Shown: positions 6,288 to 41,222 of the stretch, piece by piece
Layout: every line of letters starts with the position of its first letter
Numbering within the stretch: the first letter of the stretch is position 1
Virus record (IMG/VR): IMGVR_UViG_3300045988_047412
Location: 1-41,316 of that record
Origin: a virus
Reading direction: 5' to 3' (one strand)
Length of the DNA: 41,316 nt
Notes under the pieces: model-generated
Told to the model about the DNA's origin: nothing
Seen by the model: the letters and a program-made list of their open reading frames with translations, nothing else
Database searches by the model: none
Made by a program: the position numbers and the translations under genes

Positions 6288-6481
6288 GTAAGTGTCAGCC
6301 AACAAAATATCGTCTATGGAACCCGCAAAAAGGATTTTTCTTTGGGGGTCTGGTTTTTTGTTGTCTCTATGATAACTCACGAGATTATTATAGCTTACAT
6401 TTTGTGTGTTGTAAAGCCAAACACGACCATTTTGTTGGTTTTTGTGGAATTGCACAAAAATACATCTATTTTTTGGTAGAT

Positions 6482-7183: not shown

Positions 7184-7185
7184 AT

Positions 7186-7623
7186 ATGCCAAAAAGAGAT
7201 ACAGTCCAACCAAACGTAGATTCGATAGCAGAAAAAGTTTCGGCTAAAAGCTGGAGCGAAGCATCATTTTCGAAAATGATCGGGAAACACAAGAGGTGGT
7301 TAAGTGAAGTAAGGCGTGGGAAAAATCTCCCATCCCCAGAAGAAGCCGCACGGATATGTCAGCTTCTTAAAGCTACTCCCGACGAAATTTTGTTGTGCGA
7401 GGGGGAAACCCCAGAAGCAACCGCAAAGTGCTTAGAGAATATTGAGACGGTGCGGAAACTGGTCGAGGCTGAGGGCATAAAAGAAACCCCCGATCCGAAG
7501 ATCGAGGGTGTGAGCGCGGAAGCGCAGGAAATATTAGATTATATCCGGGATGCGACACCCGCCGAACTGGCGGAAGTCTGCCGGTATATCGGGTATCTGA
7601 AAAGCAAGAGGGGCACGGAATGA
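7186..7623 (+). CDS. HTH DNA-binding protein, candidate CI-like repressor
   Basis: 145 aa; SFSKMIGKHKRWLSEVRRGKNLPSPEEAARICQLL HTH; RBS CAGGAG. Confidence 0.65.
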   Translation: MPKRDTVQPNVDSIAEKVSAKSWSEASFSKMIGKHKRWLSEVRRGKNLPSPEEAARICQLLKATPDEILLCEGETPEATAKCLENIETVRKLVEAEGIKETPDPKIEGVSAEAQEILDYIRDATPAELAEVCRYIGYLKSKRGTE

Positions 7624-8063
7624 AACTGAACCCAGATTGCTTGCGGGATATTATGCTTTTGGTCGAAGATCGTATTTCCGTTGAAACTGCGATTGAAAAT
7701 CCAAATGGGCTAAGAAAATTTAGCTATGTCAGCATTCCCTGTTTGGTGCGCTTGCTTCCTGACAGCTATTCAAAAGAAGAGATCATATATCATATTGTGC
7801 AGCTTTCAGAAAGCGGATACTTAAAAACAGATTTTTCCTTTGCAACAAGCGAAATGTTTGGATACTTTTACTTGAATACAATTTATCACATCACGCCAAA
7901 AGGCCATGACTTTATCGCAAACATCGGGGGAAAAGAAAGCTGGGCAAAAACAAACGCTGTTTTAAAATCCTTGAAGTCAATATCTCTATCGGTAATTGAA
8001 ACGGTGGCAAAGGGTATCACTTCGGCCATAGTAGATCAATACATTGCAGGCTTTCAGGCATAA
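7620..8063 (+). CDS. DUF2513-like protein
   Basis: MKLNPDCLRDIMLLVEDR... N-terminus typical of DUF2513 prophage proteins. ATGA overlap with the upstream gene. Confidence 0.55.
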   Translation: MKLNPDCLRDIMLLVEDRISVETAIENPNGLRKFSYVSIPCLVRLLPDSYSKEEIIYHIVQLSESGYLKTDFSFATSEMFGYFYLNTIYHITPKGHDFIANIGGKESWAKTNAVLKSLKSISLSVIETVAKGITSAIVDQYIAGFQA

Positions 8064-8286
8064 TACTGTACCCGCCGTCATTATTGGCGGTTACAGAAAT
8101 GGGAGCGCTCTTGAATGCTCCTTGCTTTAGCGTTTCATAATTGCTGCATTTAATAGCCTCCGCCAAACAGCCTGGAACAAGCGTAGCGCATTCCGCCGAA
8201 ATGCCAGACGCTTCTAATACGTTGAGACACGCGTTTACAGCTTTAAGGACGTTGGGATTTTCATACCACAATTGATTATACACCAT
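8017..8286 (-). CDS. Hypothetical protein
   Basis: 89 aa with a strong RBS (AAAGGAGGAAACG ATG). Convergent with 7620..8063 and overlaps it by 47 nt. Confidence 0.55.
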   Translation of the reverse strand: MVYNQLWYENPNVLKAVNACLNVLEASGISAECATLVPGCLAEAIKCSNYETLKQGAFKSAPISVTANNDGGYSIMPESLQCIDLLWPK

Positions 8287-8393
8287 CGTTTCCTCCTTTA
8301 ATCATTCGCAGCAATTCTACCTGTTCCTCTTGCGGCAAAAGCAGTACGGCATGCATCAGTTTGTTGCGAATTTCTTCAAGCTGTTCTGTTGCC

Positions 8394-8422
8394 ATTATAT
8401 CACAGTTTGCCGGTAAATCCAA
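8394..8422 (-). promoter_or_regulatory. Near-consensus promoter TTGGAT-N17-(TGa)TATAAT
   Basis: Minus strand reads TTGGATttaccggcaaactgtgaTATAAT; -35 = 8417..8422, -10 = 8394..8399. Drives gene 8017..8286. Confidence 0.6.
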
Positions 8423-8584
8423 CATCTATGTATCCTCCGTTCATCATTTGCGAATAGAACGTCTGTTCGATTATTATAGCACACCACCATGATTTTGCAA
8501 CCGAAAGATATGGGGGCATGACGGTTGCCCGCGCATATTGAATATTTACATATACGCATATAAAAGAATGAAAGGAGCTTTACT

Positions 8585-8833
8585 ATGGTTTGCCCTAATT
8601 GCGGAAGCGAAAATGTAACAATCTCTATGGAGCAAGTGTCAAGTAAAACCAAAAAGCACGGGAACGGCATCGGAGGCCATATCAACAATGCTGCTCGCGG
8701 CTTGATGGCGGTATCAACCCTTGGCATGTCTAATCTCGTGTGGAAGAAAAGCAAAGGTGGCGAAAAGACCGTTGTAAAAAATCAAAAGATTTGCCTTTGC
8801 CAGAATTGCGGAAACTCTTGGGAAATAAAGTAA
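8585..8833 (+). CDS. Zinc-ribbon protein
   Basis: MVCPNCGSENV...CLCQNCGNSWEIK; RBS GAAAGGAG. Confidence 0.7.
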   Translation: MVCPNCGSENVTISMEQVSSKTKKHGNGIGGHINNAARGLMAVSTLGMSNLVWKKSKGGEKTVVKNQKICLCQNCGNSWEIK

Positions 8834-8836
8834 GTG

Positions 8837-8879
8837 AAAAACCCGGCCCCGCCGCCTCTGCAACAAACGGCGGAGCCGG
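8837..8879 (-). terminator. Intrinsic terminator on the minus strand, an inverted homolog of the 6188 hairpin
   Basis: Minus strand: CCGGC-u-CCGCCGU-uuguugcagag-GCGGCGG-g-GCCGG then GTTTTTC. The U-G pair exists only on the minus strand. Confidence 0.6.
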
Positions 8880-9037
8880 AAGCAAGCCGGGGGACGTCGG
8901 CTTGCCGTAATCAAAGCGTAGCAAAAACAGGGTTGGGTGGGCAAGTCCCAAAGCTTGGTTTTTGGCATTTTCAGCCGTTTAAAAGTTTGTGCCGCCTTTA
9001 CCCATATTTTGATTTTGGGGGTAAGGAGGCACTTTTT

Positions 9038-9472
9038 ATGACAATTCAGGAAGTTTGTAAGGCGAAACGTAACGCTTTGGGTATGACCATTCAGGACATA
9101 GCTGAAGCATCGGGAATTCCGCCGTCTACCGTCAACAATTTCTTTACCCATGCTTCCAAGGCCCCCTATATCTCCACGGTTGGGCCAATATGCGCCGTCC
9201 TTGGCGTGTCGCTGGATGAATTTTACGGCATCGGAGATCATCTGACGGCCAGTGAGGAAACGTTGCAAGCGGAAAAGGACGGACTAGAACACCGCCTTGA
9301 GAATAAGCGGCAGACCATCGGCCTGATGGACACAGAACTGTGCAATCTTTGGCACTCCGTGAAGCTATACAGGTGGATCATACTCGGTTTGTCACTATTG
9401 ATCATCGGGCTTTTTGCCTGGTGCGTTTGGGTTGACATCCATTGTGCTAACTATGGATTTTGGAGGGGATAA
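9038..9472 (+). CDS. XRE-family HTH protein with a C-terminal transmembrane helix
   Basis: 144 aa; LGMTIQDIAEASGIPPSTVNNF HTH, coiled segment, then WIILGLSLLIIGLFAWCVWV. RBS TAAGGAGG; stops 2 nt before the integrase start. Confidence 0.75.
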   Translation: MTIQEVCKAKRNALGMTIQDIAEASGIPPSTVNNFFTHASKAPYISTVGPICAVLGVSLDEFYGIGDHLTASEETLQAEKDGLEHRLENKRQTIGLMDTELCNLWHSVKLYRWIILGLSLLIIGLFAWCVWVDIHCANYGFWRG

Positions 9473-9473
9473 C

Positions 9474-10814
9474 ATGTGCCAAAAAATAGTGGTCACTCTA
9501 CCAAAGAATCTACGCATCCGTGTAGCACTGTACATCAGGGTATCGACCGAAGAACAGGCGAAGCACGGACTGTCACTGGCAGACCAGCGGGAGGCCCTGA
9601 CGGCCTATGCCGCAGCACACAACATGGAGGTGGTGGGCATTTACGAGGACGCCGGAATTAGCGCCAGAAAGCCGTATAAAAAGCGTCCGGCCTTGATGCG
9701 CCTACTCGATGATTGCAACGCTGGGAAAGTCGACACCATCCTTTTTGTCAAGCTGGATAGGTGGTTTCGGAATGTGGCAGGGTACTACGCCGTGCAAGAG
9801 GTTCTCGACAAAAATCATGTGGCTTGGCAGGCCATCAGAGAGGACTACGAAACTCGGACTGCATCAGGGCGATTGAAGGTCAATATTATGTTGTCGGTAG
9901 CGCAGGACGAAGCTGACCGCACATCGGAGCGCATTAAGGCCATCAACGAGGGCAAGAGGGCAAAGGGTCAGCCCACCAACGGGAAAACTCCCATCGGCAT
10001 CTGCGTGAAGAATCGGCACTACGCCATTGATAAAGAAACCGCAGATGCGGCGCGAGATATGTTCCCAGCCTTTATACGGCTGCAAAGCATCCTTGCATTA
10101 AGGCGGTATATGGCAACGGAGTGGGGAATCAAACGCTCGTACAACAAATACAAGGATGCTTTGGGAAACCGGTTGTACTTGGGTGAGGCGTTCGGCGTGG
10201 AAAACGCATTGCCAGCACTCATCGATCAAGAAACCTTTGACCTTGCCGGAAAAATCCTTGAACGGCGAAGCCAGCGGAACGCCAGTGCGGATCGAATATA
10301 TTTGTTTACCGGGATTCTCCGCTGCCGGGAGTGCGGGAGAAACATGCAGCCGGAAACTGTAAAACAGGTGTACAAGTACTACCGATGCAGAACGCACACA
10401 CTCGACCCAGCCGACTGTCCGCACATTCTCAGGATCCGGGAAGATGTGCTGGAGGATTACCTTCTGCGGGAATTTGAGGGGATCGCAAAAAAGTATTACT
10501 CCAAATCAAAAACCGCAGAAAAAAAGCCGCCCAAAACGGCGGAGCAAATCAAGCGGAAAATGCAAAAACTGAAAGACCTGTATTTGTCGGATTTGATTGA
10601 AATCGAAGAATACAAAAAAGACTATACGGAATTGAAACAGCAGCTCGCGGCAATAAACCCAGAGCCTATAAAAGAATTTGACCTTGAAACATTACGGCGA
10701 GAGTTGAAGGAATATCCTGATTTAGACCGGCAGGCAAAAAAGGAATTCTGGGTACGCACAATCCAGCGCATCGACGCAGACAATGATGGTGCGTTTTTTA
10801 TAACGCCAAGTTAG
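9474..10814 (+). CDS. int: Large serine recombinase (phage integrase)
   Basis: 446 aa; ALYIRVSTEEQ...GLSLADQ resolvase catalytic domain, recombinase domain, zinc ribbon CRECG...YYRCRTH, C-terminal coiled coil. RBS GGAGGGGA. Confidence 0.9.
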   Translation: MCQKIVVTLPKNLRIRVALYIRVSTEEQAKHGLSLADQREALTAYAAAHNMEVVGIYEDAGISARKPYKKRPALMRLLDDCNAGKVDTILFVKLDRWFRNVAGYYAVQEVLDKNHVAWQAIREDYETRTASGRLKVNIMLSVAQDEADRTSERIKAINEGKRAKGQPTNGKTPIGICVKNRHYAIDKETADAARDMFPAFIRLQSILALRRYMATEWGIKRSYNKYKDALGNRLYLGEAFGVENALPALIDQETFDLAGKILERRSQRNASADRIYLFTGILRCRECGRNMQPETVKQVYKYYRCRTHTLDPADCPHILRIREDVLEDYLLREFEGIAKKYYSKSKTAEKKPPKTAEQIKRKMQKLKDLYLSDLIEIEEYKKDYTELKQQLAAINPEPIKEFDLETLRRELKEYPDLDRQAKKEFWVRTIQRIDADNDGAFFITPS

Positions 10815-27057: not shown

Positions 27058-27234
27058 TTACGCCTGTCTACTCTGTGTCTCCAATATTTTCTTGGCAATT
27101 GTTGCCATCATGCGGTCGTTATCACATTCACCGTCAAAGTCATGCATTATGGGATCGTTTTCGTCATATGGCTCATGATGCTTTAAATACTCCAAAAGTT
27201 CCTCACATTCTGTATCTGACAAAATGTGTGCCAT
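27058..27234 (-). CDS. 58-aa acidic hypothetical protein
   Basis: Not in the ORF track. MAHILSDTECEELLEYLKHHEPYDENDPIMHDFDGECDNDRMMATIAKKILETQSRQA; RBS GAGAGGAG; overlaps the MuF 3' end. Confidence 0.45.
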   Translation of the reverse strand: MAHILSDTECEELLEYLKHHEPYDENDPIMHDFDGECDNDRMMATIAKKILETQSRQA

Positions 27235-28789
27235 ATTTTTCGCTCCTCTCTAAAAAACTTGCTATTTCCGACACATATTCATTTGGCTTGTTTTCTTCTG
27301 CCAACCGCTTTAGTCTCGTCTGCACTTCCAAAAAGTCTTTTAAAAATAGGAACCCATCATAATCTTCCGTGCGTTGCAAGATGTAAATCGCTCCGTCATG
27401 CCCCACCACTGACATCATCTGCATATTCAAATTTGCGGCAAATATCTGCAAATCTTTTTCGGAGAATATTAGGCTATCTGGGTGGCTATGGATCGAAATG
27501 TACGGCTCATTCGGTGATAGCAGGCAAATATGATTGCGCCCGCCAACCGTGACCTCCGAAATCCTTTGCATTCGCATGTTGAAGACCGCTCCCACTTCTG
27601 TCTGAATGTCTTCCTGCTCCATTGCCTCGGTCAATATATCTTGATATGCCTCTTGCAATCGATCCGCCATTTCCTTAGTAAAACCCTGCGGTACTATTTC
27701 AGGTACGCTATCTATTGTTGTTTGTGTAATTGGGTCGACTATAACTTTCCAGCTATTATTTTCCCTTATTATACTACTATGCGGCGCAGTTTTAAAGTCT
27801 TTCCACTGTGCATAGGTCATATTAGAAACAACCTCTGTTTCGCCCGTAGACGCGTTTCTGGCGCGCCGTTGCGCGGTAGAGGTATCTACCCCGCCCACGT
27901 CCGCAATCACCGTACAGCGGCATTTATACACGAGGTAGCCGGGTGCGGAAGTGTCACCGGGGAACATGATCTCGTTACCATCGACCTTAAACGGCTTGTC
28001 AATGTCCACCGTCTGACCGTCTAACATTGCGTGGGCGTGTCTCGTTCTGCCGTCCAGCGTCGCAAGCCATTGTTTCTTGAGCTTAATGCCCATCTTCTCC
28101 GCCGCCGCGTAGCTGTCCATGCGTCCGGCGTTCTTCGCTCCGGTCACGGCAGTTCTGGCCGTGCGGATGGCGGAATCGCGGCTCATGGTGGTGATCCGCT
28201 TTTGCAGGTCATCCGCCATGTGCTTGATGCTCTTACCCTGCAAGATGGAGCTTGTGACACTGGCCGTAATTTGCTTCTTGCCGTATGCGAGATCGATCCC
28301 GCGTTTCAGTGCTCTGTCCTTTGGATAGTACGGCATCAACCCCGGCTGCTCCACGATTAGGCGTTTCACCGTCTGCTCGTCCCACAGGTCAAAGCCCACG
28401 TCCCCAGCTACACTCTCGATGGTATACGCCGCATAGTTGCGGTTGAGGGAATAGATACCAGGAGTAGCATCATTGGTGTAAGACACCGCCACAGCGTTTG
28501 CATCAGTCACGCGGTGCGCCACCTTGTCACGCATGGCTTGATAGCGTTCCCCGCGCCCGATCTGATTTAGCCGCCATTGCTTATAGTCGGCCTCCGTCCA
28601 TTCCTTACCGTTCTGCACGGTGCCGATCAGCGCCTTCATTTCCTCATCACGCTTGGCAAACTGCTCAAAATATGCGTCGATGGTCACCTGCAGCTCTTTC
28701 CCAGCCTCACGGTACAGCTTCGCAATGCGCCGTTCCAACTTCGCAAGCTCCTTGTCGGTCAGTTGATGCCCAAGATCACTGGTCGCCAT
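27203..28789 (-). CDS. Head morphogenesis protein (SPP1 gp7 / Mu F family) with a C-terminal JAB/MPN-like extension
   Basis: 528 aa; MuF core WLATLDGRTRHAHAMLDGQTV...FPGD...YKCRC. Residues about 335-528 are extra and contain E398...H434-S-H-P-x5-S-x2-D446. Confidence 0.8.
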   Translation of the reverse strand: MATSDLGHQLTDKELAKLERRIAKLYREAGKELQVTIDAYFEQFAKRDEEMKALIGTVQNGKEWTEADYKQWRLNQIGRGERYQAMRDKVAHRVTDANAVAVSYTNDATPGIYSLNRNYAAYTIESVAGDVGFDLWDEQTVKRLIVEQPGLMPYYPKDRALKRGIDLAYGKKQITASVTSSILQGKSIKHMADDLQKRITTMSRDSAIRTARTAVTGAKNAGRMDSYAAAEKMGIKLKKQWLATLDGRTRHAHAMLDGQTVDIDKPFKVDGNEIMFPGDTSAPGYLVYKCRCTVIADVGGVDTSTAQRRARNASTGETEVVSNMTYAQWKDFKTAPHSSIIRENNSWKVIVDPITQTTIDSVPEIVPQGFTKEMADRLQEAYQDILTEAMEQEDIQTEVGAVFNMRMQRISEVTVGGRNHICLLSPNEPYISIHSHPDSLIFSEKDLQIFAANLNMQMMSVVGHDGAIYILQRTEDYDGFLFLKDFLEVQTRLKRLAEENKPNEYVSEIASFLERSEKYGTHFVRYRM

Positions 28790-31774: not shown

Positions 31775-31949
31775 ACGCGCCCTCCTTTCTCGCAGTCAGC
31801 TTTCTCGCCACCAATGTATGCAGGCCATTCATGGCCCCTGTAATATCGCCGGACTTAATCAGCCCGTTCAGTGTTTTCATTTGCTGTGTGGATAAATACT
31901 GCTGGTTTTTCTTCAACATCCTCCGCGCAGTCGCCTGAGCATCAGTCAT
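31704..31949 (-). CDS. Small hypothetical protein (81 aa)
   Basis: MTDAQATARRMLKKNQQYLSTQQMKTLNGLIKSGDITGAMNGL. The ATG overlaps the methylase stop; the 3' end overlaps the terS start, so the extent is uncertain. Confidence 0.4.
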   Translation of the reverse strand: MTDAQATARRMLKKNQQYLSTQQMKTLNGLIKSGDITGAMNGLHTLVARKLTARKEGAYGKAKKGNRPEAVRKPLRPAMHA

Positions 31950-33132
31950 GCAGAAGCACCGCCTTCTTCCCGGTGAACTTCTCCCACCGGTCAACAATGA
32001 CGTCGGCATACTTTGGATCATACTCCATGCAGAAAGCGTGTCTGCCATTCTGCTCCGCCGCCATAATCGTGGTGCCGGAGCCAGCGAACAGATCAAGCAC
32101 ATTCTCACCCGGCTTACTGGAGCACTGCATCTGGTAATCAAACAGCTTAATCGGCTTCATGGTCGGATGCTCCGCAGACTTGACAGGCTTATCGAAATTC
32201 AATACAGTTGTCTGTCTGCGGTTTTTGAAGAAGTAGTGCTTCTTGCCTTCCGTCCATCCGTAAAGGCAAGGCTCGTGCGCGTCCTCTTCAATTTCGCTCT
32301 CACCGTACAGGCAAGGTTCATGTTTCCACTGGAAATCCTGTCTCCCCATTACGAGGGAATTCTTCACCCAAATCAGGCACTGCCGGACGCGCAGCATCGA
32401 ATCTTTACACGCACCACGGAAGTTATAACCTTCGCTGTCGGCGTGCCAAATGTAAAATGGAGCGCCTGGTTTCATGACCATCGCCGCATTGGAGAAAGCA
32501 TCCGTCAGGAACTGCCTAAAGGCTGCATCTTCCATGTTATCGTTCTTGATTTTACCGGCGGTGCCCTGATAGTCCACATTGTACGGAGGATCGGTGAGAA
32601 GAAGATCGATTTGTGCCCCCCCCACAAGCTTCTGTACGTCTGTCAAAGACGTGCTGTCTCCGCACATAAGGCGATGGTCTCCAAGCTGGTACACATCGCC
32701 CAGCTTGCTCTTCGGCTCCGCCGGAATGACAGGTTCATAATCATCCTCGACAACGGAATCGTTCAGTTCGTCACGCAGACCCCATTCAAAGTCAAACGCC
32801 GACAGGTCGAGACCGGGCAGCTCATCAGCCAGGAGGTCAAAATCCCAGTCGCTCTCGTTGCTCTTGTTATCCACCAGCCGCAGGGCGTTCACCTGCTCCG
32901 GTGTAAGATCGTCTACGCAGACGCACGGTACTTCTTCCATGCCCAGCTTTTTTGCCGCCAAAGCGCGGCAGTGACCGATTACGATCACGCCGTCACGGTC
33001 AATCACAATCGGCTGTACAAATCCGTACTGCTTGATGCTCTCCGCAACGTTGTTGATTTGCCGCTTATCATGCTTTTTTGCATTTGCGGCATACGGAACA
33101 ATATCCGCAAGCCGCCGTTTTGTGATTTCCAT
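31942..33132 (-). CDS. ParB-like N-terminal domain fused to an N6-adenine/N4-cytosine DNA methyltransferase
   Basis: 396 aa; ParB-N KQYGFVQPIVIDRDGVIVIGHCR; motif IV TDPPYN; motif I VLDLFAGSGTT. RBS CAGGAGGA. Confidence 0.9.
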   Translation of the reverse strand: MEITKRRLADIVPYAANAKKHDKRQINNVAESIKQYGFVQPIVIDRDGVIVIGHCRALAAKKLGMEEVPCVCVDDLTPEQVNALRLVDNKSNESDWDFDLLADELPGLDLSAFDFEWGLRDELNDSVVEDDYEPVIPAEPKSKLGDVYQLGDHRLMCGDSTSLTDVQKLVGGAQIDLLLTDPPYNVDYQGTAGKIKNDNMEDAAFRQFLTDAFSNAAMVMKPGAPFYIWHADSEGYNFRGACKDSMLRVRQCLIWVKNSLVMGRQDFQWKHEPCLYGESEIEEDAHEPCLYGWTEGKKHYFFKNRRQTTVLNFDKPVKSAEHPTMKPIKLFDYQMQCSSKPGENVLDLFAGSGTTIMAAEQNGRHAFCMEYDPKYADVIVDRWEKFTGKKAVLLHD

Positions 33133-33313
33133 GCCATCCTCCTGTTTTGCTACCGGCCCCCACCCCTTGGCCTTACATAGCAGACTTTACCCGCCCTAAC
33201 GGGCATACACATCTTGCGTGTCCGGCTCTCCCCGAGCCAAACATGGTACGCAAGATCTTTTTTATCGGCTCCCGGCTGCGCTGCGTCTTCCTACCAGCCA
33301 TCAGGAACTTGGC

Positions 33314-33322
33314 AATTATACC
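33314..33322 (-). promoter_or_regulatory. Extended -10 promoter element TGgTATAAT facing the late operon
   Basis: Minus strand reads ggcTGGTATAATtgcc. No good -35. Confidence 0.4.
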
Positions 33323-33329
33323 AGCCGCC

Positions 33330-33810
33330 TGATACTTAGCTTTTTACGCTTCCTCGCCCGCTGGCCGGGATGGTACGGCATTGCAGTCCTGCCCTGCTTT
33401 AGCGCTTCAGGAAAAGTCCCCGTCACTCGCTGTGGTCTCCCCTTACGGGGCACCTATGCCGCATATCTCCGCAGTGAGCCGGTCGGCGCTCCGGCATCTC
33501 CAACAATGCGAGTATTTGCGGTCTCGCCTCCGGGCGGCAGATTGCCTTTCTGCCCTCCACTGCGGTACTGCCGTCTAAAACTGCTGCCACCGTGCGCAAT
33601 CACAGTGACCTGCTGGAACTTCGGCAGCGTAGTTTGTCCAAATGTCCCCTCTGGGACACATCGTTGAGAGGTGCGAGGGGTCCTATACCCAACCGGAATT
33701 GCACCGGGGCATCAAGGGCAAGTACCAGTTGCCGGAGATGAGCTGCTTTTACAGGCCGCAGCTTATATATTCTTGGAGCGAGGACGCATCACCCGAAACG
33801 CTCCCCGCCA
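33330..33810 (-). ncRNA. Candidate large structured non-coding RNA (ROOL/GOLLD-like class; boundaries and strand uncertain)
   Basis: No minus-strand ORF of 60 aa or more between 33133 and 34028. Dense local hairpins include CCCC-GUAA-GGGG (33439..33450, GNRA only on the minus strand), 33643..33658, 33717..33733 and 33478..33495. Long-range 8-bp pairing 33469..33476 with 33558..33565. Adjacent tRNA-like element. Confidence 0.4.
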
Positions 33811-33882
33811 TGGTGCAGACGGCTGGACTTGAACCAGCGCATACCTCCTGGCGCGGTGCTCTGCCTACTGAGCTACGTCTGC
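33811..33882 (-). tRNA. tRNA-like element with an encoded CCA but no anticodon stem (pseudo-tRNA or processing handle)
   Basis: GCAGACG-TA-GCTC-AGTAGGCA-GAGC-[19 nt ACCGCGCCAGGAGGTATGC]-GCTGG-TTCAAGT-CCAGC-CGTCTGC-ACCA. Acceptor, D and T arms are perfect. Confidence 0.55.
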
Positions 33883-33988
33883 ATATCCCCGGCATCCGCC
33901 GGGGTCAGGAGGAAAGAAAGGATGGATGGAAAGAATGAGGATACGGATATAACCCCGCACCCTCATTCTGACACATATTTTTCTACGC

Positions 33989-34022
33989 TTGCCCCGAATT
34001 GGGGGCAAAGACCAATTTTTTT
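33989..34022 (+). terminator. Hairpin plus T7 run oriented as a plus-strand terminator
   Basis: TTGCCCC-gaattg-GGGGCAA then agaccaaTTTTTTT. Lies just beyond the stop of minus-strand gene 34029..34259. Confidence 0.5.
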
Positions 34023-34028
34023 GCGATA

Positions 34029-34259
34029 CTATAAAGGTTTACTCTCTCGCTCGCCCTCGTCCCATGCAAGCTCATCCAAGCTGACGTGGTAATGATTCGC
34101 TATCAGCTTCAATTGGCTGAGAGCCGGTTCGTTCTCCCCGGTTTCATACTTCCGCAGCGTATCATGCCCAATCCCAATCAGCTCCGCTTTCACTCTCATG
34201 CTTTTAGCAGGCCGCTCAGATTCCCTTAATTTCCGCAGCCGTTCCGGGAATGTACTCAC
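34029..34259 (-). CDS. XRE-family HTH regulator
   Basis: 76 aa; ERLRKLRE...AELIGIGHDTLRKYETGENEPALSQLKLIANHYHVSLDEL. Confidence 0.75.
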   Translation of the reverse strand: MSTFPERLRKLRESERPAKSMRVKAELIGIGHDTLRKYETGENEPALSQLKLIANHYHVSLDELAWDEGERESKPL

Positions 34260-34268
34260 GTAACCACC

Positions 34269-34574
34269 TCACATAGCCGGAAATTCTCTACCACGGGTCC
34301 TCCCGCCGTCCTTTCTCTCGCCGTGACTGCAAAAGCCTTCATTTGGCATGGCACAATTAAACAGTCCGCAGCCGCCAATCTCTCCGATTTCATCACCCAT
34401 GTTTTTGTATATCCGATGCTTGCAGTCCTTGCACCGTGTCACGATCACGGCATCCACGGTGGGGGCTTTTTCGACCAAGCCAAGTAAGCCGTTCCAACCA
34501 GCACAATACGCCGCAGGGAGAACATCTTTGCTGCACCGGCCCACGCCCAAATCATCAACATCAATCAGCCTCAT
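34269..34574 (-). CDS. Cys-rich hypothetical protein (CKDCKH family, paralog B)
   Basis: MRLIDVDDL...APTVDAVIVTRCKDCKH...FCSHGERKDGG. Shares its pattern with 34561..34857. Confidence 0.6.
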   Translation of the reverse strand: MRLIDVDDLGVGRCSKDVLPAAYCAGWNGLLGLVEKAPTVDAVIVTRCKDCKHRIYKNMGDEIGEIGGCGLFNCAMPNEGFCSHGERKDGGRTRGREFPAM

Positions 34575-35095: not shown

Positions 35096-35290
35096 TCAGT
35101 CATTTTCAGCCCTCCTGTTCCATGCCTCTTTAGCTTTTTGGGGCGTATACGTAAGCCCTGACGTCGCACAACATCTAATGCACACGGCATTATACGCCCA
35201 ACGTCGACCTTGCGTGTCCTCCACTGCATCCGGGTCGACGCTTATGACCGCTTCACCTCCGCAGAACGGGCACGATTTTAACTCATTCAT
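35096..35290 (-). CDS. Lar-family restriction alleviation protein (paralog 2)
   Basis: MNELKSCPFCGGEAVI...AVCIRCCATSG...AKEAWNRR, a good match to the Lar_restr_allev pattern. Confidence 0.7.
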   Translation of the reverse strand: MNELKSCPFCGGEAVISVDPDAVEDTQGRRWAYNAVCIRCCATSGLTYTPQKAKEAWNRRAEND

Positions 35291-35858
35291 CCTTCATCGC
35301 CTCCACATAGCACCAGCTCTGGGGCGGGCGGCGAAGATATAGCCGCCCGTTTGTGTTGCAGTCCGTTTCGTCGCCATCTCCGCAAACATTTTCGCAAGAC
35401 CAACAGTTTGTGCTAAGCTCCGAGTATTCCAAACAGTCTCGCCAAAACTCCCCCAGCTTTTTCGGCGCATCGTAGATTTTCAGGTTGGAGATATGCCAAC
35501 CGTAAATATAGTGTTTTCCCTCTTCGGAATATTTGAAATAGATATCTTCGCGGCGAACACAGGATTGCTGTTCGGCAATGTCTGCATTTGCCATCTCACA
35601 TCGTTGTAGGATGTAGTCGCACACAAACTCGCCGATAACCTTGCCGTTGCATCTGCCGACCGTATTGGTCCGGACGGTATCCCTGTCCAGATTTCCACCC
35701 TTTACGGAGATATACGGATGACCACTTGTGCAGTAGATATAGCACTTAAACGGTACCTCCAGTTTCGGCACGGACTTGCGCAATTCCATAGTTTTTCTGC
35801 CAATGATGATTTTCGCGCACCACTTCGGGCGGATGCTCAGCATAACAGCTTTACTCAT
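35283..35858 (-). CDS. ASCH-domain-like protein
   Basis: 191 aa from MSKAVMLSIRPKWCAKIIIGRKTMELRK (ASCH-type N-terminus). Confidence 0.55.
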   Translation of the reverse strand: MSKAVMLSIRPKWCAKIIIGRKTMELRKSVPKLEVPFKCYIYCTSGHPYISVKGGNLDRDTVRTNTVGRCNGKVIGEFVCDYILQRCEMANADIAEQQSCVRREDIYFKYSEEGKHYIYGWHISNLKIYDAPKKLGEFWRDCLEYSELSTNCWSCENVCGDGDETDCNTNGRLYLRRPPQSWCYVEAMKDE

Positions 35859-36351
35859 CCTTCTTCGCCTCCAATGCACGCTCCGCCTCCTCGCGGGTGA
35901 GGAATACGGTCTTGCCGATGTCTGCACCATCATTACGCAGACGATACGCGCAGAACCCGTCCGGCTTGCGATTGCACGTTGACATACACAGATTATCCTC
36001 ATCCGTGCAAACAGTTCTGATGTCCGGGGCTTCAAGCTCCATTTCTCGCGGCACATTGTCACGGCCAGTCACCCATAGCGTATCGCCCACTTTGCACGGC
36101 AGCACCACCACGCGGCCTTCTTTGTCAGCTTTGAGCAGTTCTGCCGCTCTATCAACAGTCCATCCAATGGAGGACAATGCCGCCTCCGCTTTTGCCGCAA
36201 TCTCGCAGGCTCCCGGGGAAAAGCCCGTTTGCTCGTAGGCTTTTAGCCTTTCCCACACTTTCCGCTGGGTACAGCTGCCGTTGTAGGGACAGGGGTTTTC
36301 CCGGCACTGCGCAATGTCGCAGAAATTGCCATCAAAAGTCAATCGTTCCAT
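35851..36351 (-). CDS. Cys-rich hypothetical protein
   Basis: 166 aa from MERLTFDGNFCDIAQCRENPCPYNGSC; TGATG overlap with the upstream gene. Confidence 0.6.
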   Translation of the reverse strand: MERLTFDGNFCDIAQCRENPCPYNGSCTQRKVWERLKAYEQTGFSPGACEIAAKAEAALSSIGWTVDRAAELLKADKEGRVVVLPCKVGDTLWVTGRDNVPREMELEAPDIRTVCTDEDNLCMSTCNRKPDGFCAYRLRNDGADIGKTVFLTREEAERALEAKKDE

Positions 36352-36725
36352 CACTTCACCTCCGGCGGTTCCGGCAGCGGCATCCACGCCAAAGCACGAG
36401 CATTTGTTCCATTGGCAACTTCACCGCCCCAGCTTCCATTGTTTTGATATCCGAGTGCGTAATTTACAAACATTCCATTAAAGTCTCCATAGCGGAAATA
36501 CTCACCCCAACACAGCACTTTCCGAAAATTCTCCGGCAGCCGCTCCTCCACCGGTATCCACCGGGGCAGCTGCGCCCGCAGCTTCTCGATCTCTTTCTCC
36601 TGCGCCTCAATCCGGTCGGCGGCTTCCGCCAGATCATCGCCCAAGGTAATGGGCGTTTCCCACTGGTTCCCCTCCGCCCATTCTGCGTGCTCACGCAGAG
36701 CATTTACGAGGTTTGTATCTCTCAT
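36351..36725 (-). CDS. DUF551-domain protein
   Basis: RWIPVEERLPENFRKVLCWG...ALAWMPLPEPP; ATGA overlap with the methyltransferase stop. Confidence 0.65.
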   Translation of the reverse strand: MRDTNLVNALREHAEWAEGNQWETPITLGDDLAEAADRIEAQEKEIEKLRAQLPRWIPVEERLPENFRKVLCWGEYFRYGDFNGMFVNYALGYQNNGSWGGEVANGTNARALAWMPLPEPPEVK

Positions 36726-37891
36726 AATTCATCCTTTCCGTATGGGAACAAAAAGCGCCCCATGTCTCCTGGTTTCTCTACCGTGCCGAACCGCCGTTTG
36801 GTCACTGCGATGGGAAACTCTTCAATCTCGCTGGCCCATAGGCACGTTCCGCGTCCGTTCAACTGCTCCCAGATCAGCGGGAAACCACCTATTCCATCGA
36901 ACAAACTTGCCATAGTCGCGTCCCGCTCGTAGTTGCCGCACAGCCGTTTCAACAGCCATTTCCACGGCGGCAGGGCGATGGAGTTGCCCAGTGCCTTATA
37001 CCGGGGGCTGTCCGCGTCCTTATGGCGCTTGCCCTTGCTGTCCGTCCACTCGCCCAAGTCGGTCCAGTGGTCAGGGAATCCCTGAAGCCGTTCGCACTCC
37101 AACGGGGTCAGACGGCGAACAACACGGTTCTGCACCGGGTATGTCTCCGAATCCTCCCGGAAATCGCAGTTTGCTTTTGCCTTTAGCGTGTGTGCGATAT
37201 CCGGTACAGCCGCTCCGCATACCAGCATATCGTTATAGGCATCCTGCCCATTATAGCTCCCTGCGTGTGCTCCGGGCGATAAAGTCCCGGTGGTTTTCTG
37301 GTACGTCAGCGGGATTTGGTTGCCGCCGGTTCCCATACGGGCTTGCAGACTGGGAGCTACCTCACCGCAGTCTCGGATGACATCGCAGGCGTGGCTCATA
37401 TCCAGAATGGCGCACGGCACATGGGCGTTGGCGTTCAGCGTGTGACAGGGTTTCCCAAAATCAGGAATACTCCCATTCTGCTTGCTGGTGATCTGCGTAG
37501 TATCAAACTCCGTCGCATCTCCCCGGATTCGGACTGCGTAAGCAGCACCGCTTTCAGCACTGGCGGCAAGGCTTTCCCCCGCCGCTCCGCTCTCCGCAGG
37601 ATACCCTGACATGCTTTGCCGCTCAAACAATATTTCCCATGCGGTGTCGCCTCCAAAATCTGCGACAAGCGCGATTCTACGGCGACGTTGGGGGACTCCC
37701 CAGTGTTGCGCATCGAGCACTCGCCACGCAACGCTCCATCGTCCTCCCATTTCATCGTGGTATCCCCCCCAGGTGTTCCAACCTTTTTCAGGCACTTCAA
37801 TATCGGGGGCTTCCGGCTCTGCGACCCGGATGGCTTCTTCGAGGACGGCCGCAAAGTCTTTTCCTCCGTTGCTTGAGAAGGCTCCGGGAAC
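36722..37891 (-). pseudogene. C5 DNA-cytosine methyltransferase, downstream segment (motif VI remainder, VIII, TRD, IX, X, then motifs I and II at the C-terminus)
   Basis: ORF 36722..37909. From codon 37891: VPGAFSSNGG, GVPQRRRRIALVA, RRLTPLECERLQGFP, YKALGNSIALP, then in frame MASLFDGIGGF and WASEIEEF. The first 6 codons of the tracked ORF (37892..37909) are RIT-end sequence. Confidence 0.85.
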
Positions 37892-38018
37892 ATTATGAGT
37901 TGTAAGCAATTATGAAAAGACCTCCTTCCAAAATATTGAAATTTCTTTGAGAATTAAAAAGATGCTGTGCATAATTTCCCTTTATACTGTGAGCATCACA
38001 ATATAAAGGAGGCAAACT

Positions 38019-39251
38019 ATGCACAGCAGAAAGACAGTTCCAATCCCTGACTTGATGAGCGCAGCAAATATGGAGTTGATCCGTCTGGACTTCAAATCGT
38101 CAACCCTCAGTCGGCATAGCAAGGAGTTCCGTAGCTTCTCCAATTATTGCAGAGAAAACGAGATTACCGCTTATGACGCAGAAACCGGACCACAATACTT
38201 CCAACACTGTTATGGTTTGGACATCGGTAACTCCACCGCAAAACTGACCAAGCAACAACTGGACACACGCTGTTCGATTCGTTTTTTGGATGACATCTTT
38301 CAATTTGGGTATGCACTGCGATACAGCCACCATGACTACACAGTGCCACGGCAATATGTCGATTTACTGGAAGAATACCTTGCATGGTGCCACAGAAATA
38401 ATAGTTCTGATGGTACTATCCGTGTCAAGCGGACAAAGATACGGCAATTTTTTTGCTTTTTGGATGGGCGCGGAATAGAACTTTCAGATTTAACCGCTGC
38501 AGAAATTTCGGACTTCATGACCACCCTGTGCCGCTACCATCGTGCAACTATCCATGTATTCAGCAGCGTTTTACGTGATTTCTTCCGCTATCTCCATGAA
38601 AATGGGATATTGGACGATGACTTATCTTCAAGTGTTCCAAGGCCAAAGATCTACGTTGAAGAAAATATCCCCGAAACGTGGGCCCCAGAGGAAGTACGAC
38701 AATTATTGTCCGTTATTGACCGCAGCAATGCGATTGGAAAAAGAGATTACGCAATGCTTCTGCTTGCTATTCTGCTGGGCATGAGGGCTGGAGACATCTG
38801 TGCATTGAAATTCAAAAATCTGGACTGGCACCAGAAACTGATCACCTATACACAGCAAAAAACGCAAAAGGTCAATACACTGCCTCTGCTCCCTGTAATT
38901 GGAGATGCCATCATTGACTATCTGAAAAATGGGCGGTTGGATTCTGACTGTGATAATGTGTTTATCCGCCATATCCATCCTTACGGAGAATTCCAGTCCA
39001 GCACAACTCTTTCCGAAAACCTCAAGCGATATATGAAATATGCAGGTATGACAGTAAAGAAGCGCAAAGCAGCCCATTCACTGCGTCATACTCTGGCAAG
39101 CAGCCTCTTGTATGATGGTACACCGCTTATGACGATCTCCAACATCCTTGGGCACAACAGCCCAAAAACGACCTCCGTATATACCAAAGTAGACCTTCCG
39201 GCCTTGCGGAAATGTGCATTATCTTATGGAGAACGGAGGGAATTGATATGA
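38019..39251 (+). CDS. Tyrosine recombinase, first of trio (RitA-like)
   Basis: 410 aa; AHSLRHTLASSLL...ILGHNSPKTTSVYTKVD; RBS AAAGGAGG. Confidence 0.85.
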   Translation: MHSRKTVPIPDLMSAANMELIRLDFKSSTLSRHSKEFRSFSNYCRENEITAYDAETGPQYFQHCYGLDIGNSTAKLTKQQLDTRCSIRFLDDIFQFGYALRYSHHDYTVPRQYVDLLEEYLAWCHRNNSSDGTIRVKRTKIRQFFCFLDGRGIELSDLTAAEISDFMTTLCRYHRATIHVFSSVLRDFFRYLHENGILDDDLSSSVPRPKIYVEENIPETWAPEEVRQLLSVIDRSNAIGKRDYAMLLLAILLGMRAGDICALKFKNLDWHQKLITYTQQKTQKVNTLPLLPVIGDAIIDYLKNGRLDSDCDNVFIRHIHPYGEFQSSTTLSENLKRYMKYAGMTVKKRKAAHSLRHTLASSLLYDGTPLMTISNILGHNSPKTTSVYTKVDLPALRKCALSYGERRELI

Positions 39252-40222
39252 CTTCAAAAATGTTGTTGGAGCAGTATATGGCGGAACGTCATGCTCTTGG
39301 GTTCAGCCTGAAAACGGATGAGGGTTGTATCCGGCGCTTCCTCCAGGACTTTGCTGAGCCCGATGATGGAGAGATTTCGTTTACAAAAGAATATGTTTTA
39401 GACCATATTGGAAACAGACGGAACCTGCAAACCAATACCATCCTCAGAGATGTCAGCGCAATCAATGGATTTCTCGATTTTGTGATCCGCAAAGGCTATA
39501 CAGCATATAAGATCCCTCCTAAATCTCTCCCGAAAGAAAACCGCAATTTTAGAGCCTATATTTTTACGGACGACGAGATTGAGCGGATGCTGACTGCAGC
39601 GGATCATGTGCCATTTACGGAGCAGAACCCTGCACGAAAATACCAGATTCCTGTTATGTTCCGAATCTTATTCAACTGCGGATTGCGTACTTCTGAATTG
39701 CTTAAACTGCGCATGTGCGATGTAAACCTCAAAGGAAATGTGTTTACCATTTTGGATACGAAATTTCACAAAAACCGCTTGGTGCCATTCTCTGATACAG
39801 TTGCAGAATCCTTGACTCAATATCTGGAAATGTCCCCTCCAAAATCTACAGATTCCTTGCTTTTTCCAAGTTTGAACCCACGCAGCAACGGCGGAAGATA
39901 CGGGAACAGTTGGCTGCAAGCTCAATTTCGCCAGCTCCTCAGAACGGCGGGTATTCCTTACAATGGTTCAGGAAAAGGCCCTCGGCCTCATGATATCCGC
40001 CACACATTTGCGGTACACTGTCTTAACAACTGGGTCCTTTCGGGTGAAGATCTTACCGCTGCGCTACCCGTACTTTCACGGTATCTTGGACATAATGGAC
40101 TGACCGGCACGCAAAAATATCTTCAATTGACGGCGCAAATGTACCCAGATATTGTTGCCAAATTAGAAGTGCAATTTGGTGGTCTCATTCCCCAGATGGA
40201 GGTGTCCAATGAAAGCATCTGA
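39248..40222 (+). CDS. Tyrosine recombinase, second of trio (RitB-like)
   Basis: 324 aa from MTSKMLLEQY; ATGA overlap with the first gene; PHDIRHTFAVHCL...YLGHNGLTGTQKYLQLT. Confidence 0.85.
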   Translation: MTSKMLLEQYMAERHALGFSLKTDEGCIRRFLQDFAEPDDGEISFTKEYVLDHIGNRRNLQTNTILRDVSAINGFLDFVIRKGYTAYKIPPKSLPKENRNFRAYIFTDDEIERMLTAADHVPFTEQNPARKYQIPVMFRILFNCGLRTSELLKLRMCDVNLKGNVFTILDTKFHKNRLVPFSDTVAESLTQYLEMSPPKSTDSLLFPSLNPRSNGGRYGNSWLQAQFRQLLRTAGIPYNGSGKGPRPHDIRHTFAVHCLNNWVLSGEDLTAALPVLSRYLGHNGLTGTQKYLQLTAQMYPDIVAKLEVQFGGLIPQMEVSNESI

Positions 40223-41222
40223 CTTCTCCAAATTTTTGACGCAGTACCTTACACACTATCTGCCCGTCCAGAGAAATCTGAGCAGCAATACAATTCGTTC
40301 CTACCGGGATACGTTTAAACTCCTCCTGATTTTTTGCAGAGACGAGAAAGGCTTTAATATTGCAAAGCTGAATCTGTCCAAGTTGGACAAAAAGTGTATA
40401 GAGGACTTCCTTCTGTGGCTGACTAATACCAGAGGTTCTTCCCCATCTACTTACAACCAGCGCCTTTGCGCCATTCACGCTTTCTTTGATTATGTTATGA
40501 CCGAAGAACCGACGTATATGGAGCAGTGCATTTTAATCCTCAAAATTCCAAGCATGGTATCTCCCGACCCGCCCGCGCAGTACTTAACGCCAGAAAATTT
40601 GAAACATTTATTGTCTATGCCGGATACCTCTACTCCTAAAGGACGGAGGCATCTTGTCTTGCTAACTGTTTTGTATGATACAGCAGCTCGTGTTAGTGAA
40701 CTTGCGGATATTTGTATGCGGGATGTGCGATTAGATTTCCCAGCAGTTATTACTCTGCATGGAAAAGGCGGGAAGATTCGTACAGTGCCTCTCATGAAAC
40801 CGACTACTGAATTGTTACGTAGTTACCTTGAGGAAAACCACATTGATTTGCGACGAAACCCAGATATGCCCCTGTTTTGGAATGGAAGCAGACACAAACT
40901 GACCCGTTCTGGAATTACATACATCGTCCAGAAATATGCAGATATGGCACGGGAAACTGCCTCTGGGATGCCTACCAAAATCTCGCCTCATATTTTTCGC
41001 CATACGAAAGCCATGCATATGGTACAGGCCAATGTTAATCCGGTCTTTATTAAAGATTATCTGGGACACGCCGACATCTCTACCACTGAGGTCTATGCCA
41101 GAGCAGACAATGAAGCCAAGCGAGCTGCTTTGGAGAAGGCTACAGCCCATCTTGATCTACCGAAAGCATCTCAGTGGGAACAGGATGCTGAGTTGATTGA
41201 ATGGCTGTCCTCGCTTGGCTAA
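40209..41222 (+). CDS. Tyrosine recombinase, third of trio (RitC-like)
   Basis: 337 aa from MKASDFSKFL; RBS GGAGGTG; 14-nt overlap with the second gene; PHIFRHTKAMHMV...YLGHADISTTEVYARAD. Confidence 0.85.
   Translation: MKASDFSKFLTQYLTHYLPVQRNLSSNTIRSYRDTFKLLLIFCRDEKGFNIAKLNLSKLDKKCIEDFLLWLTNTRGSSPSTYNQRLCAIHAFFDYVMTEEPTYMEQCILILKIPSMVSPDPPAQYLTPENLKHLLSMPDTSTPKGRRHLVLLTVLYDTAARVSELADICMRDVRLDFPAVITLHGKGGKIRTVPLMKPTTELLRSYLEENHIDLRRNPDMPLFWNGSRHKLTRSGITYIVQKYADMARETASGMPTKISPHIFRHTKAMHMVQANVNPVFIKDYLGHADISTTEVYARADNEAKRAALEKATAHLDLPKASQWEQDAELIEWLSSLG

Follow-up and report, generated by a model that had tools for sequence, protein, structure and literature searches.

A row of small structured RNA genes occupies the largest non-coding block of a predicted temperate phage of gut Oscillospiraceae

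The viral record IMGVR_UViG_3300045988_047412 of IMG/VR was analysed over positions 1 to 41,316 (41,316 nt; hereafter the window), and the subject of this report is the 896-nt block at 33133-34028, in which no protein-coding gene is evident. The block holds at least five small, structured and separate RNA genes in a row, all on the minus strand, which is also the gene-sense strand. Comparison of more than 200 related loci resolves it into modules of 40-110 nt that assort independently and are each delimited by boundaries of conservation. As judged from alignments of close relatives, these modules have been gained, lost and exchanged as cassettes, and the helices of at least four of them (a tRNA-like RNA named T1, a skipping-rope RNA, and two elements named M3 and M4) have been kept through compensatory changes. 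The locus is best read as an accessory slot in the genome of a temperate siphophage of gut Oscillospiraceae, with the early genes on one side and the packaging/late genes on the other. Tentatively, and at somewhat short of an even chance, we regard it as a multi-gene non-coding RNA locus that would be processed in the manner of a tRNA operon and would release accessory RNAs, some of which may be antidotes to RNase toxins.

The block is flanked by the gene for a 76-aa HTH_3 protein (34259..34029, minus strand) and by a ParB_N/N6_N4_Mtase gene (hereafter ParB-methylase; 33132..31942, minus strand), beyond which follow the genes for the terminase small subunit (terS) and large subunit and for the portal protein. 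An initial annotation of the sequence had called this the largest non-coding block of the genome and had stated that it contains no minus-strand open reading frame (ORF) of 60 aa or more. The second statement holds, and the first is consistent with a crude ORF map. On this map, in which any ORF of at least 60 aa was counted, the other gaps reach 288 nt at most; the longest minus-strand ORFs in 33133-34028 have 58, 48, 47 and 45 aa. The plus-strand ORFs of the block (149, 98 and 87 aa) are antisense to all neighbouring genes and span modules that are gained or lost in close relatives, with indels of +1, +2 and +4 nt in those modules. A protein gene hidden by a frameshift is ruled out by minus-strand ORFs of 58 aa or less, by the non-triplet indels and by the presence or absence of whole cassettes. 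The minimum free energy (MFE) z-scores of the 896 nt, derived from 20 dinucleotide shuffles per strand, are -5.2 for the minus strand and -4.5 for the plus strand. Among INPHARED phage records there were three partial matches only, all of them unannotated. A 134,801-base contig (L084) holds a near-identical copy of the phage region, and the phage therefore exists as an integrated prophage.

Covariance models of Rfam 15 were applied at their curated gathering thresholds over the window and permissively (E <= 10) over 32900-34300. Two matches at gathering threshold were obtained in the whole window, a tRNA and a skipping-rope RNA, both in the block and both on the minus strand. For a first set of relatives, the upstream regions of 80 viral contigs encoding the same ParB-methylase were compared with the block, and the architecture was then tabulated over 128 related slots. 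The modules are listed in Table 1.

Table 1. Modules of the 896-nt block, in 5' to 3' order along the minus strand.
Module	Positions	Strand	Description
5' part	33883..34028	minus	hairpins 34008-33989, 33969-33932 (16 bp, then a U-rich run) and 33905-33888; MFE fold
T1, tRNA-like RNA	33811..33882	minus	7-bp acceptor stem, D arm, T arm, discriminator A, encoded CCA
X, hairpin-rich spacer, unclassified	33685..33810	minus	four local hairpins in MFE fold
abiF-like hairpin	33645..33680	minus	outer stem CCCCUC/GAGGGG, inner stem CAC/GUG, 11-nt loop CUCUCAACGAU
Y, 76-nt leader	33565..33640	minus	present in 16 related slots, all with skipping-rope RNA
skipping-rope RNA (RF02924)	33470..33564	minus	45.3 bits vs 36.7, E = 1.1e-7, model positions 1-80 of 80
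M3, 92-nt cloverleaf	33371..33462	minus	7-bp acceptor stem GCGGCAU/AUGCCGU, discriminator A, encoded CCA
M4, 107-nt rod-like RNA	33264..33370	minus	7-bp closing stem UCCCGGC/GCCGGGA, variable tip
M5a	33206..33263	minus	long hairpin GAUCUUGCGU...ACGCAAGAU enclosing a smaller one; fold, alignment
M6, conserved leader	33133..33205	minus	hairpin GCCC-GUUA-GGGC, then UAAAGUCUGCUAUGUAAGGCC-AAGGGGUGGG-GGCC, ribosome-binding site

The exchange of modules is most evident among the closest relatives. M4 behaves as a cassette, since 33370-33206 is missing from the near-identical relative L004; M5a travels with M4 and is missing there as well. Two further relatives (L005 and L011) lack about 170 nt holding the skipping-rope RNA, and the abiF-like hairpin there directly abuts M3. 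The same slot is occupied in other relatives by the drum RNA (RF02958, 73-81 bits) or by ordinary tRNA genes (Trp, Gln, Asn, Ser and Gly), and in at least eight of them a gene for a Tad2-like protein (PF11195) lies between M3/M4 and the ParB-methylase gene (for example L083 at 9517-9969, and L120, L134, L146, L170, L176 and L178). The last RNA unit ahead of the late leader is usually M3; in a few slots tRNAs or a T1-type unit come after it. The element on the 5' side of M3 is a skipping-rope RNA ending 7 nt before it, a drum RNA ending 2-3 nt before it or an abiF-like hairpin, and T1-type elements and real tRNAs are located farther upstream. The genes downstream of the slot comprise ParB-methylase, several terS families, Tad2-like genes and others.

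The initial annotation had proposed a structured RNA on the minus strand beside a tRNA-like element, which is borne out by the Rfam matches and by covariation. Every hairpin that it listed is present with the exact sequence and coordinates, and most of them are helices of the RNA modules. Its leading hypothesis, that the whole block is a single large, ornate RNA like GOLLD or ROOL, has fared badly, and we consider it extremely improbable. A big non-coding block in a prophage, a tRNA-like neighbour and a strong folding z-score would all suit such an RNA, and GOLLD and ROOL are described from prophages near tRNA genes in Firmicutes (PMC5737381), a setting which the block shares. However, the block fits neither model: no match to GOLLD, ROOL, raiA, OLE or any other large RNA was obtained, whether at gathering threshold (whole window) or permissively at E <= 10 (32900-34300). 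The covariation check on the corresponding regions of relatives, which the annotation had suggested, came out positive for the helices of single modules, but no long-range helix between modules is conserved, and relatives with 95-97% identical flanks miss entire internal segments. Small modules, each independent of the others, make up the block, and there is no single large RNA. The annotation had also allowed for an undescribed RNA, and this alternative proved right for M3 and M4, both of which covary and neither of which has a match in Rfam.

M3 is the segment most widely common to the relatives, with conservation running from G1 of GCGGCAU to the terminal AUGCCGU-ACCA. A search with its core pattern retrieved at least 120 viral contigs; the pattern required GUGAC, so that part of the seemingly invariant core is forced and the copy number is a lower bound, and M3 variants with GUGGC in place of GUGAC occur in five contigs (L333, L337, L345, L358 and L367). 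Three true matches were found in the genome collection, all in metagenome-assembled genomes of Oscillospiraceae/Clostridiales. Besides the acceptor stem, the cloverleaf consists of three arms: one capped by a GNRA loop, a long one whose internal loop is invariant, and, in the T position, one of 4 bp with the 7-nt loop GGCAGGA; the tip of the middle arm is a 3-nt loop. Two of the hairpins noted earlier belong to it, GGCAT/ATGCC being its acceptor stem and CCCC-GUAA-GGGG its GNRA-capped arm, with the minus strand as the RNA strand. Across 39 distinct copies, 96.7% of cells pair and both sides change in 14 of the 28 pairs, most of these double-sided changes coming from a few divergent copies (L124, L109, L105, L207 and L210). 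None of 500 shuffles reached the observed values, slid partners paired in 33-46% of cases, and the same four-way junction was obtained independently with RNAalifold. G-U pairs are found on the minus strand only (for example 14 at pair 1-96 and 17 at pair 45-62), and the arm-1 loop is a GNRA loop in every copy, again on the minus strand only; the RNA strand is therefore the minus strand. The copies vary in length from 92 to 96 nt, which excludes coding. No Rfam family matched M3, the only match being CRISPR-DR36 inside it at E = 3.9, and as a tRNA it had no match to the Rfam tRNA clan at E <= 10 and no D-loop or T-loop consensus. A covariance model of M3 (R1) found no distant relatives in 68 loci lacking the exact pattern, and on these comparisons M3 is a tight family.

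The first base of M4 directly follows the CCA of M3, and its closing stem is followed by GCCG, GCCA or ACCA. Twenty copies in two subtypes (alignment A3) share the conserved internal loops GGCGAGGAA and GGCUGGUAGGAAG, with pairing in 97.1% of cells and changes on both sides in 12 of the 24 pairs. The covariation score was reached by none of 500 shuffles, and slid partners paired in 23-44% of cases. Whole helices are swapped between the subtypes, the closing stem being CCCGGC/GCCGGG in one and CCACAC/GUGUGG in the other and the inner helix AUCAGG/CCUGAU or CACAC/GUGUG, and the internal loops remain constant. The string TGGTATAAT at about 33310 was considered as the extended -10 element of a late promoter and was rejected, since it belongs to the variable tip of M4, where the other subtype has unrelated sequence instead.

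T1 corresponds to the tRNA-like element that had been placed at 33811-33882 on the minus strand. The Rfam tRNA model (RF00005) covers 33882..33814 with 51.1 bits, above its gathering score of 29. The acceptor stem is GCAGACG/CGUCUGC, and a D arm, the T arm GCUGG-UUCAAGU-CCAGC (GGUUCAAGUCC) and a terminal ACCA are present; AUAU precedes both T1 and M3. ARAGORN called no tRNA in the whole window, T1 and M3 included. The region of the anticodon arm has 19 nt (ACCGCGCCAGGAGGUAUGC), of about 22 needed, and an arm of 5 bp and 7 nt with U33 and a purine at position 37 is impossible. Relatives carry 31 different anticodon-arm regions of 8-40 nt on the same scaffold, 4 of them canonical and 27 non-canonical, and ARAGORN gives either no call or conflicting "anticodons" for this scaffold. 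The acceptor, D and T arms and the CCA are intact in 46 distinct copies, with compensatory changes that in the T stem include CTGG/CCAG, CAGG/CCTG, TTGG/CCAA and TGGG/CCCA. T1 therefore keeps just the parts that are read by tRNA-processing enzymes while the rest drifts, as is expected of a processing signal or mimic and not of a decoding tRNA.

The loss of the anticodon arm could also be taken as a sign that the block is a decaying tRNA cluster with recombination scars, T1 and M3 being pseudogenes and the remainder neutral filler. The region looks unconstrained, and relatives carry true tRNAs in the slot. Yet the three arms and the CCA of T1 are maintained by compensatory changes, and copies of M3 in at least 120 contigs are 87-92% identical amid scrambled flanks, at least eight of them different on the downstream side, with helices that covary. 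The conservation and covariation of M3 and T1 therefore point to purifying selection and not to decay, which we consider highly improbable as an account of the block.

Slightly less improbable, but still very unlikely, is that the hairpins act as DNA, in a pac or cos site, a replication origin or recombination hot spots, through cruciforms or single-stranded DNA hairpins. Sites of the pac type often lie just upstream of terS, a position which the block fits; the mosaic junctions indicate frequent recombination, and the plus strand also folds strongly (z = -4.5). On the other hand, the helices of M3 are maintained through G-U pairs that are A-C mismatches on the other strand, its arm-1 loop is of the GNRA type on the minus strand only, and two of the modules are Rfam RNA families. 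Features such as a T loop and a CCA end would be meaningless in DNA.

At the 3' end of the array, the segment 33263-33133 matches 85 of the 128 slots, mostly over the M6 stretch, and is the most widespread part of the block. M6 is located directly upstream of the first late gene, whichever gene that is (ParB-methylase, Tad2-like or terS), and from this position it is probably a putative promoter or leader element of the late operon. At the other end, the 5' part (33883-34028) is conserved in 33 of the 128 slots. The 9-bp stem that had been reported within 33932-33969 is the core of a 16-bp hairpin with a U-rich run after it, which in the folding model looks terminator-like and possibly marks the end of the early operon; the last hairpin of the 5' part ends 5 nt before T1. 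Spacer X was found in 17 closely related slots only, invariably after T1 and with little variation among copies. The earlier GGCAA-n7-TTGCC hairpin is one of its four.

These positions make a cis-acting structured 5' leader of the late/packaging operon, formed by M3, M4, M6 or perhaps all modules with any others as passengers, the main rival explanation, although we judge it unlikely. RNAs for processive antitermination, and tRNA genes embedded in the late leaders of lambdoid phages, offer parallels. In most of the 120 contigs listed, M3 is followed either by terS at a distance of 63-300 nt or by a ParB-methylase gene and terS; M6 stands right before the first late gene; the array comes after a strong hairpin that has a U-rich tail; and all modules are on the sense strand. 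What argues against a leader is the independent assortment of the modules, evident from the downstream flanks of M3, the loss of M4 and M5a in L004 and the many relatives with the ParB-methylase that have no M3 at all. Acceptor-type stems, an encoded CCA and units with sharp ends look more like stable RNAs that are excised, and the skipping-rope and drum RNAs are stand-alone small RNAs elsewhere.

Processing of the array in the manner of a tRNA operon is suggested by the 7-bp terminal stems, by a pyrimidine at position -1 of M3 (U or C in 90 of 90 flanks), by an encoded NCCA in 71 of the 90, and by the way in which M4 abuts the CCA of M3. With moderate confidence, we infer that the array would be transcribed with or after the early operon and then cut like a tRNA operon. 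RNase P would cut between the pyrimidine at -1 and the purine at +1 before the 7-bp acceptor-type stems of T1, M3 and M4, and each unit would be trimmed to its encoded NCCA. The same RNase P cuts would also generate the 3' ends of the RNAs that abut M3, which end in terminators elsewhere. In this scheme T1, M3 and M4 would punctuate the transcript for processing; with lower confidence, they may also be decoys for nucleases that are directed at tRNAs. T1 resembles tRNAs in its acceptor, D and T arms and its CCA, and M3 and M4 do so in their 7-bp terminal stems, discriminator and NCCA; they differ from tRNAs in that T1 has no functional anticodon arm and that M3 has no D-loop or T-loop consensus and is missed by tRNA models. 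The t-elements of plant mitochondria, non-canonical cloverleaves that carry RNase P/Z signals and define the ends of neighbouring RNAs (PMC1920247), offer a precedent, and the tRNA-like units of the block may by analogy provide such end-defining cleavage signals.

Phage T4 encodes, beside its tRNA genes, the RNAs RNAC and RNAD, which are processed by RNase P and end in CCA. These RNAs, also known as species 1 and 2, are small, stable and expressed late, and no function has been assigned to them (PMC9697503). The likeness lies in their being small stable RNAs encoded by a phage, as those of the block are predicted to be. No similarity in sequence or structure is present, and the host phylum, the phage type and the position in the genome differ.

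The skipping-rope RNA of the block covers the full RF02924 model and shows the features of the family: the closing stem, a pair of 5-bp hairpins and the conserved segment GAGAUGC. The 8-bp long-range pair of the initial annotation (33469-33476 with 33558-33565) is its closing stem, and GCCGG-n8-CCGGC (33478-33495) is its 3' hairpin. The copy is divergent, scoring 45 bits compared with 65-78 bits for canonical members, and it has a 28-nt central insert. No Rho-independent terminator was found at its 3' side in the consensus scan; M3 is in the place of the terminator, and no nuclease gene is adjacent. Eight distinct local copies fall into two subtypes, in which the closing stem covaries (CAGUG/CACUG vs CAACG/CGUUG) and the central hairpin is GCGAG/CUCGC or GUGAG/CUCAU. 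The Y leader occurs in no slot without a skipping-rope RNA, and changes in its helix GCUGCC/GGCAGC are partly compensatory (GCUACC/GAUAGC); it is possible that Y is a 5' domain of the skipping-rope RNA or a hairpin of its own. The reported TGTCCC-n4-GGGACA hairpin (33643-33658) is present in the sequence but competes with a stem that covaries in relatives.

The skipping-rope and drum RNAs were judged likely to have a sophisticated biochemical function, none being assigned (Weinberg et al. 2017, PMC5737381). In both families a 3' terminator and a "compelling association" with a protein domain encoded nearby were reported, with a possible relation to DUF3800 genes (PMC5737381). The protein associations given here, which may or may not coincide with the one reported there, were derived from neighbourhood counts. 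A pattern search for skipping-rope RNAs yielded 120 metagenomic loci (L213-L332), and 18 of 18 copies that were re-tested are true members of the family at 65-78 bits. In 47 of the 120 loci, a PBECR3 gene (PF18812, about 133 aa, E = 6e-22) is immediately upstream of the RNA, on the same strand in all 47, and a terminator follows the RNA (for example at L239 1795-1873 and L231 3302-3380). The neighbours of these pairs are typically genes for an integrase, an S24 repressor and an ImmA-like peptidase, which marks the surroundings as a prophage lysogeny module. One skipping-rope copy (L272 6408-6485) lies 59 nt downstream of a ToxN gene (E = 3e-49), and in L245 a copy follows a PemK/MazF-like gene. 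A purine riboswitch was observed about 1.1 kb from a PBECR3 and skipping-rope module in L228 (1894-1991) and is probably ordinary chromosomal context. For the drum RNA, six viral loci (L346, L349, L364, L365, L341 and L334) have a terminator-bearing drum followed by a PBECR4 gene (PF18813), which in L341 is split across two frames. DUF3800 itself was considered as the partner and set aside, being absent from the scanned ORFs of the window and from the precomputed Pfam lists of the relatives; the partners found were PBECR3 and PBECR4. No paper stating a link between PBECR3 and the skipping-rope RNA was found in the literature searched.

Hidden Markov models (HMMs) of PBECR3 and PBECR4, run on six-frame ORFs, gave no match in the window or at any locus of the phage group, with 2-21 kb searched around each relative's slot, and no DUF3800, Abi_2 or PBECR domain was found among about 40 ORFs of the window scanned with Pfam. 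The window also encodes a 528-aa Mu F-like head protein (27203-28789, minus strand), in which Pfam covers residues 173-295 and a C-terminal part of about 230 aa is unannotated. MuF proteins often have C-terminal effector or PBECR domains (PMC5512222); this one did not match the PBECR3 or PBECR4 HMMs. Two human gut contigs with PBECR3 and the RNA (L239 and L331) share stretches of 92-98% identity with the phage group, so that carriers of nuclease plus RNA and carriers of the RNA alone are related temperate phages. By the same comparison, the carriers of the toxin and those of the RNA alone very likely share hosts.

Since the RNA is carried here without the nuclease that adjoins the skipping-rope and drum RNAs elsewhere, it may be an antidote or decoy. 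With lower confidence, the released RNAs would be accessory cargo that acts in trans in conflicts between the phage and its host or rival prophages, and the skipping-rope RNA (in relatives, the drum RNA) would silence PBECR toxins during infection. Colicin-like BECR RNases, the group that includes the PBECRs, cut mostly tRNAs (bioRxiv 10.64898/2026.08.28.747851). The pseudo-ToxI of phage PhiTE is a phage RNA that mimics an RNA antitoxin (PMC3475682), and by analogy a phage with the RNA alone could neutralise a toxin. Resemblance to type III toxin-antitoxin systems lies in the order drum, terminator and PBECR4, in the position of an RNA next to a small endoribonuclease gene and in the skipping-rope copy near ToxN. 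The differences are that the antitoxins of those systems are tandem repeats, whereas the skipping-rope and drum RNAs are single structured RNAs in one copy each, that the skipping-rope RNA is downstream of PBECR3, and that PBECR proteins have the BECR fold and not the ToxN fold.

A setting of counter-defence is indicated by the Tad2-like anti-Thoeris genes in the slot of relatives, the orphan ParB-methylase on one flank, and the Lar and C5 methylase genes upstream. The ParB-domain N6/N4 methylase (31942-33132), a Lar-like restriction-alleviation protein (35096-35290) and a C5 cytosine methylase (36722-37909) are all encoded on the minus strand around the RNA block and are likely anti-restriction genes. 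Also on the minus strand, a 259-aa ORF at 35283-36062 has no Pfam match, and its residues 68-113 match the PADLOC candidate-defence family PDC-M11B (E = 3e-12). One may go further and take the block as an island devoted to RNA-based counter-defence, in which the skipping-rope and drum RNAs, as antitoxins or inhibitors, would disarm PBECR3 and PBECR4 toxins of rival prophages and in which M3, M4 and T1 would be a new class of tRNA mimics, serving both as punctuation for RNase P and as decoys or sponges for nucleases and other toxins aimed at the acceptor end or the body of tRNAs; we regard this fuller version as rather doubtful.

The abiF-like hairpin gives a mixed picture. Its loop CUCUCAACGAU is identical to the Rfam abiF consensus and it has the two-stem architecture of the abiF RNA motif, but it scores 21 bits with RF03085 on 33680..33645, under the gathering score of 37 (E = 0.87), and no abiF gene follows it. 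The outer stem covaries in 13 variants, which include CCCCGC/GCGGGG, CCCUCC/GGAGGG and CUCCCC/GGGGAG; no match to abiF at gathering threshold was found in the relatives scanned. Hairpins of the abiF type with the loop GCCUCUCAACGAUGC are frequent in diverse viral contigs (L368-L487), where 95 of 120 exact 15-mer matches fold correctly, often with a T-rich run after them and near holin-like genes, and with no abiF gene. An orphan antitoxin was considered for this hairpin and found no support, as there is no constant neighbour gene (the top family is present at 17 of the 95 loci). Hairpins of this type may be general phage regulatory or terminator hairpins that were copied by the abiF leader.

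Several points weigh against a processed array that releases antidotes. The consensus scan called no promoter or terminator on the minus strand of the block. The skipping-rope and drum RNAs, putative inhibitors of the PBECR proteins, could be substrates, cofactors or regulators instead, and their single structured form and the place of the skipping-rope RNA downstream of the nuclease gene do not follow the usual antitoxin pattern. As the copy in the block is divergent, its cross-reactivity with a real toxin is uncertain, and PBECR3 is missing from about half of the metagenomic loci with a skipping-rope RNA. An abiF-type hairpin that is common without a constant partner gene fits poorly with the idea of orphan antidotes. 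The conservation of M3 points to a specific partner, more than a mere processing signal would need; its position near terS and the late genes fits a cis role equally well; and the covariation of M3 and M4 comes mostly from a few divergent lineages, with a modest number of independent events.

Elsewhere in the window, three tandem Phage_integrase tyrosine-recombinase genes (410, 336 and 348 aa) lie at 38019-41222 on the plus strand, at the end of the window, with a GC content of about 45%. The three genes resemble an element of the "recombinase in trio" type, inserted into the phage or beside it. A lower-GC module of the lysogeny type is located on the opposite strand to the late genes, at 6404-10814 (plus strand), and contains a 259-aa ORF without a Pfam match, two HTH repressor-like genes, a DUF2513 gene and, at 9414-10814, a large serine recombinase (Resolvase and Zn_ribbon_recom) that is probably the phage integrase.

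The block adds two covarying RNA motifs that are absent from Rfam 15, M3 (at least 120 gut viral contigs) and M4, both of which are specific to phages of abundant human-gut Clostridia. The pairing of the skipping-rope and drum RNAs with predicted RNase toxins gives a testable function for two orphan RNAs; if true, the counter-defence reading would give a function to two RNA families that have been orphans since 2017 and would define new RNA classes. Cassettes of RNA genes in a slot that also takes Tad2-like genes suggest that non-coding counter-measures are missed by protein-centred screens. If confirmed, tRNA-like units that end neighbouring small RNAs would be a parallel in bacterial viruses to the t-elements of organelles.

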